NCBI GenBank assembly: GCA_011322445.1
Contig: DRMV01000020.1
Coordinates: 64,157-128,156, forward strand
DNA from: Chloroflexota bacterium
Lineage (GTDB): Bacteria; Chloroflexota; Anaerolineae; Anaerolineales; DRMV01
DNA length: 64,000 bases
Reading direction: 5' to 3'
How positions within the stretch are numbered: position 1 is the first letter of the stretch; every line of letters starts with the position of its first letter. The notes below the pieces were generated by a model. It was not told the DNA's origin. It saw nothing but the letters and a program-made list of their open reading frames with translations, and did not search any database. Below, in pieces: positions 33,587 to 40,819 of the stretch. The translations under genes were made by a program, and so were the position numbers.

Positions 33587-34093
33587 ATGCTTAAATACGC
33601 CCTTTTAGGATTACTGGACGAAGCGCCGCGCCACGGATATGACCTCAAGCAGGCCTTCGAGGCCATGTTAGGCCATACCTGGTCGGTCAACATTGGCCAG
33701 ATTTACAGCACGTTAGCCCGCTTAGAGCGCGATGGCCTGGTAACCTGCCACGAGGTGCCACAGGAACTGCTGCCCAACCGCAAGGTATGCTCGCTCACCG
33801 AGCAGGGGCGCGCCGCCCTCGCCCGCTGGCTGGCTGAACCCGCGCGGCCTTCCGCCCGCCTGCGGGTGGATTTTTACCTCAAACTACTCCTCGCCCGCCG
33901 CTCCGGCGCGGCTGATCTGCAAACCCTCATTTGGCAGCAGCGCCAAACCCTCCTGCAGGCCATGGCCGACCTCACCCCCTTGCTCACCGACCCCGACGAG
34001 GAGCGCCGCCTCCTGGCCGAGGGCTTACAGTTGCACTTGGAGGCTGATTTGAAATGGTTGGAACGATGTGAGGAAGAGTTGTTGAGGGAGTGA
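33587..34093 (+). CDS. PadR-family transcriptional regulator
   Basis: MLKYALLGLLDEAPRHGYDLKQAFEAMLGHTWSVNIGQIYSTLARLERDGLV is the canonical PadR winged helix. The SD GGAG lies 7 nt upstream. Confidence 0.9.
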   Translation: MLKYALLGLLDEAPRHGYDLKQAFEAMLGHTWSVNIGQIYSTLARLERDGLVTCHEVPQELLPNRKVCSLTEQGRAALARWLAEPARPSARLRVDFYLKLLLARRSGAADLQTLIWQQRQTLLQAMADLTPLLTDPDEERRLLAEGLQLHLEADLKWLERCEEELLRE

Positions 34094-34137
34094 GGTACTG
34101 AGGGATTGAGGGATTGAGGGATTAAGGTGCTGAGGTG
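34082..34137 (+). repeat. 8-nt periodic array, seven units of NTGAGGNN (core TGAGGGAT x3)
   Basis: ttgaggga gtgaggta ctgaggga ttgaggga ttgaggga ttaaggtg ctgaggtg. The array spans the padR stop codon at 34091. Confidence 0.85.
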
Positions 34138-34186
34138 AATGGGCTGTGGTGGCTCTTAATCTCCTCTGCGCCCTTGGCGTCATCAT

Positions 34187-34217
34187 CCACCGATTGACAC
34201 AGATTTACACCGATTGA
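34187..34217 (+). repeat. 31-nt word repeat CACCGATTGA/CACAGATTTA/CACCGATTGA, shared with 38562..38592
   Basis: ccaccgattgacacagatttacaccgattga matches the reverse complement of 38562..38592 at 27 of 31 positions. It is followed by CACAGA-type words and then the inverted words TCTCTGCG and TCTTTGCG, up to about 34310. Confidence 0.85.
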
Positions 34218-34419
34218 GCAAGAAAACCACAGAGGACACAGAAATTTACAGAGAACACAGAAAAAACTTTTCTTTGCGTTCTTTGCTTTCTCTGCGTCTC
34301 TGCGTTTCCCTTGGCGTCCTTTGTGCCCTTGGCGCCCTTGGCGACCCCTTGACACACAAAAAAATCCACAATCGTCCACCATCATCCGCGCCCAACTTTC
34401 CCATTCAGGAGGTATCACC

Positions 34420-35154
34420 ATGCCGGTACTGGAAGCCCATAACCTGCAAAAGACCTACCGCAACGACGGCGTTGCCGTGCCCGCGCTGCGCGGCGTCGAC
34501 CTGAGCGTGGAACCCGGTGAATTCGTGGCCGTGATGGGGCCTTCGGGCTGCGGCAAGTCCACCCTGCTGCACCTGCTGGCCGGGCTGGACATCCCCACCG
34601 GGGGCGAGGTGGTGCTGGACGGCCATCGGCTGAACGACTTGAACGAATCGCAGCGGGCTATCTTGCGCCGCCGCACCGTGGGGTTCGTGTTCCAGGCCTA
34701 CAACCTGATCCCCAACCTCACCGTGGCCGACAACGTGGACTTGCCCGGCCTGCTGGCGGGGCGCCCGGCCGCTGAGGTGGCCCACAGGCGGGACGAGTTG
34801 CTGGCGGCCTTGGGCCTGGCCGACAAGGCGGACGCCTTCCCCAGCCAACTCTCCGGCGGGCAGCAGCAGCGGGCGGCTATCGCCCGCGCGCTCATCAACA
34901 CTCCCACCGTCCTCTTAGCCGATGAGCCCACGGGCAACCTGGACTCCCGCAGCGGCAACGAGGTGCTCGCGCTCTTCCGCCGCTTCAACACCGAAGGCCA
35001 GACCATCTTGCTGGTGACCCACGACCCCAAAGTCGCCAGTTTCGCCCGACGGGTGATTTTCATGCGCGACGGCCGCTTCGTCTCCGAAATGCACACCGCG
35101 GGCGGCGGCGACCCCGCGCAGGTCATCGCCAAACTGGTGGAGGTGGAACGATGA
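34420..35154 (+). CDS. ABC transporter ATP-binding protein (MacB/LolD type)
   Basis: Start ATG 34420 (MPVLEAHNLQKTY) after AGGAGG. Walker A GPSGCGKST, signature LSGGQQQRAAIARAL, Walker B LLADEPTGNLD. Confidence 0.9.
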   Translation: MPVLEAHNLQKTYRNDGVAVPALRGVDLSVEPGEFVAVMGPSGCGKSTLLHLLAGLDIPTGGEVVLDGHRLNDLNESQRAILRRRTVGFVFQAYNLIPNLTVADNVDLPGLLAGRPAAEVAHRRDELLAALGLADKADAFPSQLSGGQQQRAAIARALINTPTVLLADEPTGNLDSRSGNEVLALFRRFNTEGQTILLVTHDPKVASFARRVIFMRDGRFVSEMHTAGGGDPAQVIAKLVEVER

Positions 35155-37469: not shown

Positions 37470-37522
37470 GGAGGCAGAAAAAAGGCCTCTGGGCATTTCC
37501 AGAGGCCAGTGTGTTTATGCCC

Positions 37523-38473
37523 TCAGGGCACAATCCAGGTGCCGGTCTCGCCACGCAACGCCGCGGGGATGTGTTCGGGGTCGGTAATCAGCGCCTTGCC
37601 GTTGGGTACGGCCTTCAGGTAGCGCAAAATGGCCTCGATTTTCGGCTTCATGCTGCCGGGCTTGAAATGGCCCTCGGCCAGGTACTTTTCGGCCTCGGCC
37701 ACGGTCATCTTGTCCAGCCACTGCTGGTTGGGCTTGCCAAAGTTGAGCGCCACTTTTTCCACGGCGGTGGAAATCAGGAACAGGTCCACCTTCATGGAAA
37801 TTGCCAGCAGCGCCGAGGCAAAGTCCTTGTCGATGACCGCTTCCACGCCTTCCAGTTCGCCCTTTTCGTTCTCGACGACCGGAATGCCGCCGCCGCCCAC
37901 GGCAACCACGGTGAACTTGTTTTCCACTAAGGTGCGGATGGCATCCAGTTCGATGATTTTCTTGGGGTTGGGGGAAGGCACCACCCGCCGCCAGCCGCGG
38001 CCGGCGTCTTCCATCACGTGCCAGCCCTGCGCCATGCGCTGTTTGGCGGTTTCCTCGTCCATGAACGAGCCGATGGGCTTGCTGGGGTGCTCGAAAGCCG
38101 GGTCGTCCTTGTCCACCAGCACCTGGGTGACCACGGTAGCAGCCTGGTTGCTCATGCCGCGGCGCTTGAATTCGTTGTGCAGCGCCTTCTGGAACATGTA
38201 GCCGATCGCGCCCTGGGTGTCGGCACCGCAGGAATCCAGCGGCACGGTATGCAGTTCGTGGGCGGCCAGTTCGGCGCGCCGCAAAATGAAGCCCACCTGC
38301 GGCCCGTTGCCGTGCGTGATGACCACGTCCCAGCCGCTGGCAATCATCTCGGTGATGTGGTGCATGGTCTCTTTGGCCGCAGCATACTGGTCGGGGATGG
38401 TCTTGTGCTGCTTGTCTTTGATGAGAGCATTGCCGCCAACGGCAACAACGGCAACTTTACGCTCGGTGCTCAT
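37523..38473 (-). CDS. arcC: carbamate kinase
   Basis: Start re-assigned to MSTERKVAVVAVGGNALIKD (ATG 38473, SD AAAGGAGG). Motifs ITHGNGPQVG, VVAVGGGGIPV and a GHFKPGSMKPKIEA C-terminus. Confidence 0.9.
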   Translation of the reverse strand: MSTERKVAVVAVGGNALIKDKQHKTIPDQYAAAKETMHHITEMIASGWDVVITHGNGPQVGFILRRAELAAHELHTVPLDSCGADTQGAIGYMFQKALHNEFKRRGMSNQAATVVTQVLVDKDDPAFEHPSKPIGSFMDEETAKQRMAQGWHVMEDAGRGWRRVVPSPNPKKIIELDAIRTLVENKFTVVAVGGGGIPVVENEKGELEGVEAVIDKDFASALLAISMKVDLFLISTAVEKVALNFGKPNQQWLDKMTVAEAEKYLAEGHFKPGSMKPKIEAILRYLKAVPNGKALITDPEHIPAALRGETGTWIVP

Positions 38474-38596
38474 GAAACCTCCTTTGGGGAAAGCAATCCA
38501 CAAATTTCACAGATCAGCACAGATTTTTCTGTGGAATCTGCGTAATCTGCGGTTTCAAAATCCAATCGGTGAAAATCTGTGCCAATCTGTGGATGC
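38474..38596 (-). repeat. word-repeat 5' UTR element upstream of arcC (CACAGATT / CGCAGATT units followed by inverted TCTGTG units)
   Basis: The minus sense reads ccacagattggcacagattttcaccgattgg attttgaaac cgcagatta cgcagattc CACAGAaaaaTCTGTG ctgatctgtgaaatttgtgg. The 31-nt core (38562..38592) is shared with 34187..34217, in the same orientation relative to the downstream gene. Confidence 0.8.
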
Positions 38597-39586
38597 CTAT
38601 CGCATGGTCAGCGCCATCACGGCCTTCTGGACGTGCAGGCGGTTTTCGGCCTCGTCGAAGACCACCGAGTGCGGGCCATCCAGCACCTCGCTGGTGACCT
38701 CAATGTCACGGTCGGCGGGCAAGGGGTGCATGTAAATGGCGTCGTCTTTCGCCAGCGCCATCTTCCGCGCATCCATAATCCAGTGCTTGTACTGATCCTG
38801 AATGCGCTTGCCTTCGTCGGGGTCGGTGGTGGTCATCAGCGGGCCCCACGATTTGGCATACACCACGTCGGCGTCTTTCATCGCCTCTTCCATGCCGTTG
38901 GGGTCGGAAATCACCTCAAACGACGAGCCGTACTTGGCCGCCTGCGCCTTGGCCTGCTCGACGATGTCGGGCATCAGGCCAAATTCCGGCGGGTGCGCCA
39001 GGGTCACATCCATGCCGAAGCGGGTCATCTGCAAAATCAGCGATTGCGGCACGGAAATCGGCTTGAGGTACGACGAGGCGTAAGCCCAGGAAACCACCAG
39101 TTTCTTGCGCCGCAGGTCACGCCCCTTCTTTTCCATCATGGTCATCAGGTCGGCCAAGATCTGGAAGGGGTGATAGATTTCGCACTGCATGTTGAACACC
39201 GGCACGCGGGAAGCCTCGGCAACATGGTTGATGTAGCGGTTGCCCACGCCCCAGGTCACATGGCGGATGGCGATGCCGTCGAAGTAGCGGCCAAAGATCT
39301 CGCCGAGTTCGCGCTCGGTGTCGCCGTGGGAAATCTGGGTGGTACGGCTTTCAATGAAGGCCGCATGGCCGCCCAACTGGTCAATGCCAGCCTCGAAAGA
39401 GCCACGGGTGCGGGTGCTGGGGAAGAAGAACAACATCGCCAGCACCTTGTCGCGCAGGTAAGCATGGGGTTCGCCCAAAGCGCGCTTGCGCTTCAGGTCC
39501 CAGGCCACCTCGAGAACGGTTTCCACTTCCTCTTTGCTGAAGTCCAGGTCGCCAATCAGGTCGCGACCGCGCAGATCGGTTTGCAT
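38597..39586 (-). CDS. YgeW-like (knotted) carbamoyltransferase
   Basis: STRTR carbamoyl-phosphate motif. Blocks TQISHGDTERE, FNMQCEIYHPFQILADL, KKLVVSWAYASSYLKPISVPQSLILQMTRFGMDVTLAHP, DADVVYAKSWGP and YMHPLPADR are colinear with E. coli YgeW as recalled from memory. The OTCase SMG and HCLP signatures are absent. Confidence 0.75.
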   Translation of the reverse strand: MQTDLRGRDLIGDLDFSKEEVETVLEVAWDLKRKRALGEPHAYLRDKVLAMLFFFPSTRTRGSFEAGIDQLGGHAAFIESRTTQISHGDTERELGEIFGRYFDGIAIRHVTWGVGNRYINHVAEASRVPVFNMQCEIYHPFQILADLMTMMEKKGRDLRRKKLVVSWAYASSYLKPISVPQSLILQMTRFGMDVTLAHPPEFGLMPDIVEQAKAQAAKYGSSFEVISDPNGMEEAMKDADVVYAKSWGPLMTTTDPDEGKRIQDQYKHWIMDARKMALAKDDAIYMHPLPADRDIEVTSEVLDGPHSVVFDEAENRLHVQKAVMALTMR

Positions 39587-39596
39587 GATAGTCTCC

Positions 39597-39724
39597 TTAG
39601 TCAGTTAGTCAGGTAGTCGTTTAGTCGAGTAGTCGGTTAGTCAGGTAGTCGTTTAGTCGGGTAGTCGGCACCAGGCGACTACCCGACTATCAGACTACCG
39701 GACTGTCAGACTATTTGACTATTT
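39597..39724 (-). repeat. 8-nt periodic TAGTC/GACTA array forming a long hairpin; it fills the whole intergenic gap
   Basis: On the plus strand there are nine units of (T/G)TAGTCNN (39597..39668), the loop caccaggc, then six units of GACTANNN (39677..39724). A perfect 14-bp stem pairs 39654..39667 with 39676..39689. The outermost units abut the SD of the YgeW-like gene and overlap the stop codon of the PyrB-like gene. Confidence 0.9.
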
Positions 39725-40676
39725 ATTCCATCGCCCCGAGCACCAATGCCAGCAATGCCATGCGCATCACCACGCCGTTGAAGGCTTCCTGCCAGTAGCG
39801 AGCCCAGCGGGTGCCATCCACATCGGTGGGGATTTCATCCATCCGCGGGAAGGAGTGCAGCAAGATGGCGTCGGGCTTGGCTTTGGTTTCCAGCAGTTCT
39901 TTGGTGATTTTGTAGTTGGGCGGTGTCAGGCCCACATCGCCGGTGCGCTCGTCGCGCGGCTTGGTGTAGTCGGGCTGCACCACGGGCTCGACCAGAATCA
40001 CATCGGCCTCGTGAATCACCTGCTCGATGTGTTCGGCTTCCTTGAAGTTGAGCCCCATTTCCTTGATTTCGGCCTTGAACTCGTCGGTGAGGCTCATTTC
40101 GGGCGGGGCGATGAAAGTGATGGGGCAGTCGAACTTGGTGAGGGCATAGGCGAGGGAGTGCATGGTGCGCATGCGCATATCGCCTACGGCCACCCAGGTG
40201 AGGCCATCGATGCGGCCTTTTTCGCGGTAAACGGTGTAGAGGTCGGTCAGGATCTGGGTGGGGTGTTCGCCCCAGCCGTCGCCGCCGTTGATAATCGGAA
40301 TGGAAGCCCACTTGGCGGCTTCGGCGGGTGCGCCCTGCTGGAAGTGGCGCATCACGATGACGTCGCCGTAGTATTCCAGCATGCGGACAGTGTCTTTGAT
40401 AGACTCGCGGTAGAAGTCGCCGGCGCGAGTCATCTTGGGGTCGGCAAAGCCGGTGACCTTGCCGCCCAGGCGCAGCATCGCGGCTTCGTGCGCCAGGCGG
40501 GTGCGGGTGGAGGGCTGATAGAAAGCGGTGACCAGTGTCTTGTCTTTGAGCAGATCCACATTCTTGCGATTGCGAGCAATCGGCTCCAACTGTTCGGCGA
40601 CCTCGAACGTGCGGAAGAACTCGCTCCGCTCGAAGTCTTTCAAAGAAAGGATGTCACGGCCGAGGAAACTGCGCAT
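39723..40676 (-). CDS. aspartate carbamoyltransferase-like (PyrB-type) carbamoyltransferase with a divergent second-substrate site
   Basis: Start ATG 40676 (MRSFLGRDILSLKDF) lies 7 nt after GGAGGT. It keeps STRTR, VMRH, GEHPTQ, the GDMRMRTMHSL region and LHSFPRMDEIPTDVD. It is colinear with E. coli PyrB, but HPLPR is HSFPR and the TRVQKER segment reads EPVVQPD. Confidence 0.75.
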   Translation of the reverse strand: MRSFLGRDILSLKDFERSEFFRTFEVAEQLEPIARNRKNVDLLKDKTLVTAFYQPSTRTRLAHEAAMLRLGGKVTGFADPKMTRAGDFYRESIKDTVRMLEYYGDVIVMRHFQQGAPAEAAKWASIPIINGGDGWGEHPTQILTDLYTVYREKGRIDGLTWVAVGDMRMRTMHSLAYALTKFDCPITFIAPPEMSLTDEFKAEIKEMGLNFKEAEHIEQVIHEADVILVEPVVQPDYTKPRDERTGDVGLTPPNYKITKELLETKAKPDAILLHSFPRMDEIPTDVDGTRWARYWQEAFNGVVMRMALLALVLGAME

Positions 40677-40819
40677 AGGATTACCTCCAAAAAACAATAG
40701 AATCGCCCTTCTGGGTCGTGGTTTAGTCTACCACTACCTTCATTGGGAGGGAAGGGTAGCCAGCGATAAAAAATGGGAGGATTGCGCCAGGCCACCCACC
40801 CCCACGTGGCCTTTCCATC

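Follow-up and report, generated by a model that had tools for sequence, protein, structure and literature searches.

Repeats that replace the Shine-Dalgarno (SD) sequence at start codons are known in Beggiatoaceae, and related repeats occur in cyanobacteria, Bacteroidetes and Geobacter; their role is unexplained. The STRR heptamers of cyanobacteria are abundant intergenic tandem 7-nt repeats of filamentous bacteria that fall into several unit families and have no known function. To our knowledge, neither an orientation toward start codons nor hairpin pairing has been established for STRR sequences. In enterobacteria, REP/BIME elements are dispersed hairpin repeats that lie between co-transcribed genes and can stabilise the upstream mRNA segment. 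A REP is a single imperfect palindrome of about 35 nt that is mobilised by RAYT, a Y1 transposase.

Three further systems bear on the locus described here. Direct repeats of the heptamer TAACTGA have been described in marine Beggiatoaceae and in some Cyanobacteria and Bacteroidetes (MacGregor, 2015, PMC4679880). The 170 repeat sets of the Beggiatoaceae are mostly forward and lie a few nucleotides from a start codon, usually with the ribosome-binding site (RBS) missing (PMC4679880). The downstream genes show no functional pattern and the distribution of the repeats is patchy; a translational role was proposed, by a mechanism that is unknown (PMC4679880). In Geobacter metallireducens, paired octanucleotide/heptanucleotide sites were listed as 'putative global regulator binding sites' (Aklujkar et al., 2009, PMC2700814). 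According to the part of that paper which deals with the sites, they consist of about four tandem octamers with the consensus GTTGCTYN, form opposite-strand pairs at variable distance and number dozens per genome (PMC2700814). Finally, ORF-bearing intervening sequences (IVS) of 23S rRNA in Coxiella, Leptospira and others have a terminal inverted-repeat stem around a PF05635 gene and are cut by RNase III (PMC4990558). In the Coxiella IVS, tandem heptamers of variable number are found on the 5' side at the cleavage site (PMC4990558). A literature search on Anaerolinea and intergenic tandem repeats found no paper on such arrays in Anaerolineae.

Here, an octamer-built spacer between two carbamoyltransferase genes of an Anaerolineales bacterium is described and compared with these systems. 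An earlier note on this DNA had been unable to assign the spacer to a known class; it is matched by the published repeat classes (PMC4679880, PMC2700814) and by the arms of gene cassettes that carry S23p (23S_rRNA_IVP, PF05635).

Operon Setting and Anatomy of the Spacer

The host genome comprises 2.63 Mb in 53 contigs with 62% GC, and its nearest relatives place it with an uncultured bacterium of the Anaerolineales. In the window, which is the whole stretch of 64,000 nt that was analysed, the spacer separates the first two of three minus-strand genes (Table 1). In the ORF listing, the frame of the PyrB-like gene extends to a TTG at 40697. The terminator that follows the third gene marks the end of the operon and shows the form that terminators take in this organism. 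A scan found no intrinsic terminator in the spacer, and no T run lies 3' of its stem. Nor does the spacer contain a credible promoter: the scan returned one sigma-70-like match, with 1.1 expected by chance, and in this single 9/12 match (CTGACT-16-TATCAT) the ATG itself is part of the -10 overlap. With neither a terminator nor a credible promoter, the spacer is most simply internal to one operon transcript, and it appears to be transcribed within a pyrB-like/ygeW-like/arcC mRNA. Rfam gave 0 matches in the window at gathering score, rRNA included. At E<=1 over 39400-39900, only sub-threshold hairpin models of miRNA precursors were returned (E 0.001-0.2), and these are chance resemblances to the hairpin shape.

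Table 1. Features of the operon and of its octamer spacer, in window coordinates.
Feature	Position	Strand	Remarks
PyrB-like aspartate carbamoyltransferase-type gene	39723..40676	-	TIGR00670, 250 bits; stop TAA 39725-39723
5' arm, six octamers, core UAGUC (one CAGUC)	39676..39722	-	G/U-rich spacers
Central perfect 14-bp stem, 39689-39676 with 39667-39654, loop included	39654..39689	-	From the fold; core stem also in relative L003
Hairpin loop CCUGGUGC, 8 nt	39668..39675	-	All but one base kept in relative L003
3' arm and leader, nine GACUA cores at exact 8-nt spacing	39598..39667 (cores 39666-39598)	-	
Ribosome-binding region	39587..39597	-	SD AGGAG 39597-39593, 6-nt spacer to AUG
Carbamoyltransferase gene, OTC / N-acetyl-OTC / YgeW type	38597..39586	-	AUG 39586-39584
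Carbamate kinase gene, third in the operon	37523..38503	-	TIGR00746, 378 bits
Canonical intrinsic terminator after the carbamate kinase gene, 9-bp GC stem and T run	37484..37507	-	

The gap of 136 nt contains 16 pentamer cores. Both pentamers are rare in the genome (TAGTC 516 and GACTA 565 copies in 2.63 Mb), so that 16 copies in 136 nt are far beyond chance. The 5' arm begins 1 nt past the stop codon of the PyrB-like gene. In the 3' arm, the bases between the cores are C, A and U only, without G; pairing with the 5' arm takes up units 1-4, and units 5-9 are mostly open and reach into the SD. A tenth GACUA (39593-39589) overlaps the SD, 5' of the AUG. The earlier note had described six UAGUC octamers, an 8-nt loop and nine GACUA octamers merging into the SD, and this layout was borne out on the minus strand. 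Its perfect central stem of 14 bp was likewise recovered; outward of this stem, a 3x3 internal loop is followed by an extension that is 7 bp in the fold and not 6 bp as had been given.

Within the 3' arm, 0 changes fall in the 45 core positions and many in the 24 spacer positions. The octamer unit can be described as a fixed GACYA core followed by three variable, G-poor bases. Tandem Repeats Finder reported periods of 8, 16 and 32 in the spacer. The 32-nt period has 94% matches (score 128), suggesting that a block of four units was duplicated recently.

The 3' tail of the 16S rRNA in this genome includes CCUCC and is the ordinary GAUCACCUCCUUU. GACUA as an extended SD or complement of the 16S rRNA was considered and rejected: genome-wide, GGAG continues with G and not with ACUA.

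Folding and Accessibility of the Start Region

A 161-nt RNA spanning the element folds at -59.1 kcal/mol, compared with -34.0 +/- 4.1 for dinucleotide shuffles (z -6.1; 0/200 as good). In the thermodynamic ensemble, the four inner 5' units pair in register with a paired probability of 0.78-1.0. For the two outer 5' units, pairing is spread across 3' units 5-10 (0.43-0.75) with no fixed partner. The several pairing registers expected from the earlier note are therefore seen for the outer two units, and the inner four keep to one. The SD bases are paired in 24-46% of the ensemble.

The unequal numbers of units, six on the 5' side and nine on the 3' side, had led to the proposal that alternative pairings occlude or free the SD, by which translation of the YgeW-like gene would be coupled or tuned. 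The GACUA units that flank the SD are indeed open to pairing with the two outer 5' units, and in the minimum-energy fold they are so paired. The cost of opening AGGAG..AUG, however, is the same whether the 5' arm is native (4.33 kcal/mol), shuffled (4.43 +/- 0.74) or deleted (4.46), and the equality found at 37 C is similar at 55 and 70 C. Furthermore, the SD bases occupy spacer positions to which nothing in the 5' arm is complementary, unit numbers vary among close relatives (5+8 in L003 vs 6+9 here), the element is dispensable, no ligand- or protein-sensing part is evident and no Rfam family scores above threshold. A register-shifting switch of the SD thus finds no support in silico, with the 5' arm having no effect on SD accessibility, and is considered very improbable. 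For the YgeW-like gene, the start-opening energy is 5.66 vs a genome median of 7.7.

A Family of Oriented Arrays in the Genome

The genome-wide search for similar arrays that the earlier note had suggested was run with an array defined as three or more cores, GACTA or TAGTC, spaced 8 nt apart, and with reversed cores as control. The whole genome of 2.63 Mb contains 58 arrays with 324 units, and the control found 4 arrays with 12 units. Arrays were placed relative to genes from a simple self-trained caller (2376 genes, 89.5% coding), some of whose starts may be wrong. The arrays are strongly oriented toward start codons: 37 precede a co-oriented start by at most 60 nt in the GACUA sense, as against 2 in the UAGUC sense (binomial p 3e-9). 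The distance from array to start is mostly 2-27 nt. Array length is typically 4-7 units, with a maximum of 14. Many array-led genes have no GGAG or GAGG and the array reaches the ATG; the YgeW-like gene retains its AGGAG. Several arrays begin directly downstream of -10-like boxes, so that at these genes the array makes up the entire leader.

The spacer triplets of leader arrays are composed of C (59%), T (24%), A (12%) and G (4%). For the region -13..+3, the median opening energy is 3.6 kcal/mol in 33 array-led genes vs 7.6 kcal/mol in 294 others (Mann-Whitney p 7e-11). With an orientation of 37:2, spacers with 4% G and starts that are opened twice as easily, the PyrB-YgeW locus offers a clean case of such repeats in the Chloroflexota.

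GACTA arrays are one of several unit families. When arrays of period 7-9 are merged, 279 are found in the genome, and the other families include TGCA plus 3 bases, CACAGA plus 3 bases, CCCCAATN, AACCAGGT and GGATGCCC. The genome is 10.6% intergenic, and 74 of the 97 period-7 arrays (76%) and 93 of the 113 period-8 arrays (82%) are intergenic. Among period-7 and period-8 arrays just 5' of starts, C exceeds G in 74, against 19. In the window, the 260-nt spacer at 34082-34343, upstream of the gene that starts at 34420, carries several array families consecutively: TTGAGGGA (x5.8), an inverted pair of CACAGAGAA (x3.7) and TTCTCTGCG (x4.2), and CCCTTGGCG (x4). This spacer is of the same element class as the PyrB-YgeW spacer.

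A search with Pfam on 20 array-led genes found diverse housekeeping functions and no common pathway that would point to a single-pathway regulon. As a post hoc impression, genes for DNA repair and nucleotide sanitising seem to be enriched among GACTA-led genes; they include uvrA (C36 20965-24504), uvrC (C32 108635-110497), mutL (C43 55296-57098) and ligA (C43 50634-52658) of the host genome, together with genes for MazG, a Nudix hydrolase and a DNA methylase. These may simply be stand-alone genes of low expression.

Turnover Among Relatives

Across 80 Anaerolineales, spacers at the orthologous junction are as short as 3 nt and as long as about 500 nt. The same element was found in relative L003, whose flanks have 92% nucleotide identity; here whole-unit indels give 5+8 units, and the central stem is unchanged. 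In L002 and L004 (94% and 89% identity, respectively, over the leading 600 nt of the downstream gene), the junction has unrelated G-poor octamer arrays that come after a GC hairpin. Inverted arrays built of other units occupy it in L031, L053, L057, L060 and L078, and many relatives have only a short SD spacer of 3-21 nt. The succession of a stem, a G-poor periodic leader and a start codon recurs, and the sequence of which it is built is replaceable. The leader of mutL shows the same array turnover across five congeners. At the dnaE junction, two congeners have a loaded TAGTC/GACTA cassette and the host genome has other arrays.

Four in-phase GACTA cores were found in 10 of 41 relatives, a distribution that is patchy even inside the genus. 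Of 201 sampled Chloroflexota, 6 have five in-phase cores; all six are Anaerolineales, and 0 of 180 genomes sampled outside the order have them. The unit GACTAYCY recurs in different families of Anaerolineales. Two contigs, L001 (1-61) and L010 (1-42), begin within an octamer array just upstream of the YgeW-like gene. Short-read assemblies break at such arrays, and array counts in metagenome-assembled genomes (MAGs) are therefore lower bounds.

According to the earlier note, an absence of other copies and of conservation in relatives would have suggested a neutral slippage product. The genome holds 58 arrays and the element is kept in a close relative. A functionless selfish or neutral repeat may still be envisaged, one that spreads by slippage, recombination or mobility, survives only at sites and in an orientation that are harmless and forms its hairpin by inverted duplication. 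Such an origin agrees with the fast turnover (the whole-unit indels of L003, the wholly different spacer of L002), with the patchy distribution even inside the genus and with the minimal spacers of many relatives. The 32-nt higher-order repeat is typical of recent block duplication, and an excess of 7-nt repeats has been ascribed to polymerase slippage (Mrazek et al., 2007, as summarised in PMC4679880). Slippage alone, however, fails to explain one core at 58 loci and the combination of a fixed core with free spacers. The bias in orientation, the depletion of G and the open start regions imply at least strong selective filtering, and in genes without an SD the array is the sole sequence on offer for ribosome landing. 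A purely selfish or neutral origin is considered unlikely.

Two other observations were made at this junction. A conserved spacer of 186 nt was found in four relatives (L018:2815-3000, L024:2814-3000, L028:2815-3000 and L034:834-1019). Some blocks of this spacer are invariant, and RNAalifold gives a long-range helix (-25.8 kcal/mol, 2 compensatory pairs). The spacer matches nothing in Rfam and is a candidate structured leader RNA of the carbamoyltransferase gene. In addition, the contigs L018 (JAIWHF010000102.1) and L052 (DASRZI010000335.1) are labelled Methanosarcinales archaeon and Zixiibacteriota, respectively. Both carry an Anaerolineales-type gene pair with 82-84% protein identity and have probably been mis-binned.

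Paired Arms and S23p Cassettes

A TAGTC array directly 5' of a GACTA array on the same strand is found in 6 of the 58 arrays, the PyrB-YgeW spacer included, and among these six the order is never reversed. Five of the six lie between co-directional genes, where they start 1-6 nt past a stop codon and reach to within a few nucleotides of the next start; the sixth sits between convergent genes. Inverted pairs that enclose cargo were also seen, with a 150-aa ORF, a 355-aa ORF or 483 nt without a called gene between the arms (C52 28996-29613, C32 91793-92978 and C53 13661-14224). The pair at C52 28996-29613, around the 150-aa ORF, has GACTA-type arms in the opposite order, with GACTA first.

Arms of this design also flank S23p genes. 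The host genome (G000) has three such genes (C21:31831-32139, C38:18245-18565 and C48:13050-13280). All three have a G-rich array on the 5' side and a complementary C-rich array on the 3' side that leads into the start of the next gene. Their units differ: GATGCCCN at one, TTGAGGNA/CCCCAATN at another and GGTTAGGT/CCTAACCT at the third. In four relatives (congeners and an order-mate), 16 PF05635 genes were found, and 11 of the 13 whose flanks were read are bracketed in the same way. The arms are TAGTC/GACTA in two of those cassettes, which come from two congeners.

The PyrB-YgeW junction itself carries a loaded form in L038 (81% protein identity), where a PF05635 gene (76.6 bits) stands between a TAGTC arm and, on the 3' side, a GACTA arm leading into the SD. 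This PF05635 gene (L038:2609-2960) has one in-frame TGA after codon 72 with the remainder in frame, indicating either a decaying gene or a sequencing error. In L017, both arms surround an apparent gene remnant at the same junction. No PF05635 ORF is present in the loop of the element described here, which has only 8 nt. Since the cargo is absent here and present at the L038 junction, the PyrB-YgeW copy is at best an empty form; the element has the anatomy of an S23p cassette minus its gene. Empty and loaded copies at one gene junction in two species provide a basis for experiments on the function of the repeats.

As an alternative, the arrays may be bound by protein. Each GACUA core could be the site of one subunit of a sequence-specific, oligomeric nucleic-acid-binding protein, as TRAP and HutP bind RNA, which would unite the array-led genes in a post-transcriptional network. 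The protein might be pentameric S23p, a cold-shock protein, ribosomal protein S1 or Rho; the genome codes for cold-shock domain (CSD) proteins and for Rho. A binding array would account for cores that stay fixed within and between arrays as the three spacer bases vary, for the typical length of 4-7 units, for the position of S23p genes between such arrays and for a GACTAYCY unit shared by families of the order and found in 0 of the 180 genomes outside it. A similar proposal has been made for the TAACTGA repeats (MacGregor, 2015, PMC4679880). Against it, unit families swap or vanish among congeners at the mutL leader, the dnaE junction and the PyrB-YgeW junction, and the 20 downstream genes examined share no pathway. 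The genome with the most GACTA arrays, G029 (70 pattern hits), has no PF05635 match at 98% completeness, which weakens S23p in particular as an obligatory partner of the arrays. Binding of this kind is regarded as unlikely.

Proposed Role of the Element

The reading that is preferred here, with a probability of roughly 0.5, is that the spacer is a copy of a repeat family in which the 3' array serves as a ribosome landing strip and the arms pair into a stem between the cistrons, of the kind seen in S23p cassettes, that may act as an RNase III site or an exonuclease barrier. Of the roles listed in the earlier note, a processing or stability element and a protein-binding array are thus still candidates. 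The family is a dispersed, fast-turnover class of intergenic short tandem repeats of the Anaerolineales, of which the PyrB-YgeW spacer is one copy. The GACUA array on the 3' side would form the landing strip for the YgeW-like gene. As this array is nearly free of G, it would fold neither on itself nor on the SD, and the start region would stay single-stranded. At many other genes, a GACUA array may stand in for the SD entirely. The 5' UAGUC array is the complementary arm, and both arms together form a stem like that which brackets S23p cassettes, with the PyrB-YgeW copy as a cargo-less ('empty') cassette.

Such an intercistronic stem is most likely a processing site for RNase III or a barrier to 3'-exonucleases rather than a gate for the SD, and would allow each cistron to decay at its own rate. 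A role in processing or stabilisation is proposed because the stems of S23p-type IVS are cut by RNase III and an RNase III gene (rnc, C33:106001-106366) is present in the genome. Transcription through the element, cleavage or stabilisation at its stem and any benefit to the cell are inferred, and what is observed are the anatomy, the orientation across the genome, the depletion of G, the open start regions, the relationship to the cassettes and the turnover among relatives. Several points count against the preferred reading. The 5-bp core helices between 3x3 loops are poor substrates for RNase III, and only the 14-bp stem and the 7-bp extension are continuous. The orientation bias could reflect only the purging of harmful selfish insertions, without benefit. 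The element is dispensable, being absent from the many relatives with spacers of 3-21 nt. The readings are partly compatible, as a 3' arm that works well enough as a leader may be what allows a selfish cassette to persist.

A more far-reaching idea would make S23p pentamers, which are four-helix bundles, the trans-acting partners of the arrays. The ring would bind about five RNA units, the cassettes would seed cognate arrays, and initiation in Anaerolineales and other repeat-rich filamentous bacteria would be SD-independent and tuned by the protein. The binding of TRAP to its triplets is proposed as the model for an S23p ring on tandem RNA units. This partnership is a long shot; if true, it would give a function to the S23p family and to repeats of the STRR and TAACTGA type.

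The single locus in itself is unexceptional and of moderate interest, and its value lies in being a well-documented instance. The repeats are tied to the arms of S23p gene cassettes, and the S23p protein is also without known function. Repeats of this kind are relevant to gene calling and to the design of expression in uncultured lineages, and they explain why assemblies break at such spacers.

Comparison With Known Systems

Among elements that resemble the octamer spacer in part, REP/BIME sequences differ in that they are not arrays of tandem units and do not form the leader of the downstream gene. The STRR heptamers differ from the Anaerolineales arrays in their units and in phylum. The 23S rRNA IVS share a long terminal inverted-repeat stem, and the arms here are designed like those around PF05635 genes. 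The element, however, lies in an mRNA spacer between protein genes and not in helix 25 or 45 of 23S rRNA, its PyrB-YgeW copy has no ORF, its arms are tandem octamers and its cleavage by RNase III is putative.

The sites of Geobacter are similar in that their tandem octamers, conserved at the core and degenerate in the final bases, occur in pairs on opposite strands. They differ in consensus and phylum, and the part of the paper that describes them reads them as DNA sites, sometimes beside IS elements (PMC2700814). No relation to start codons or to S23p is reported for them in that part (PMC2700814).

Like the TAACTGA repeats, the Anaerolineales arrays are oriented tandem units at many intergenic sites, near starts and often without an RBS. 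The unit here is an octamer, GACYA plus NNN, rather than a fixed 7-mer, which makes it the same kind of element built from another repeat. The host belongs to the Chloroflexota, and the arrays are longer, with up to 14 units. Inverted hairpin pairs are recurrent here (6/58), whereas one inverted repeat was found among the 170 sets of Beggiatoaceae (PMC4679880). A link to S23p cassettes is undescribed for the TAACTGA repeats. The PyrB-YgeW element is real and non-random, and is a further instance of a known but unexplained class of repeats.
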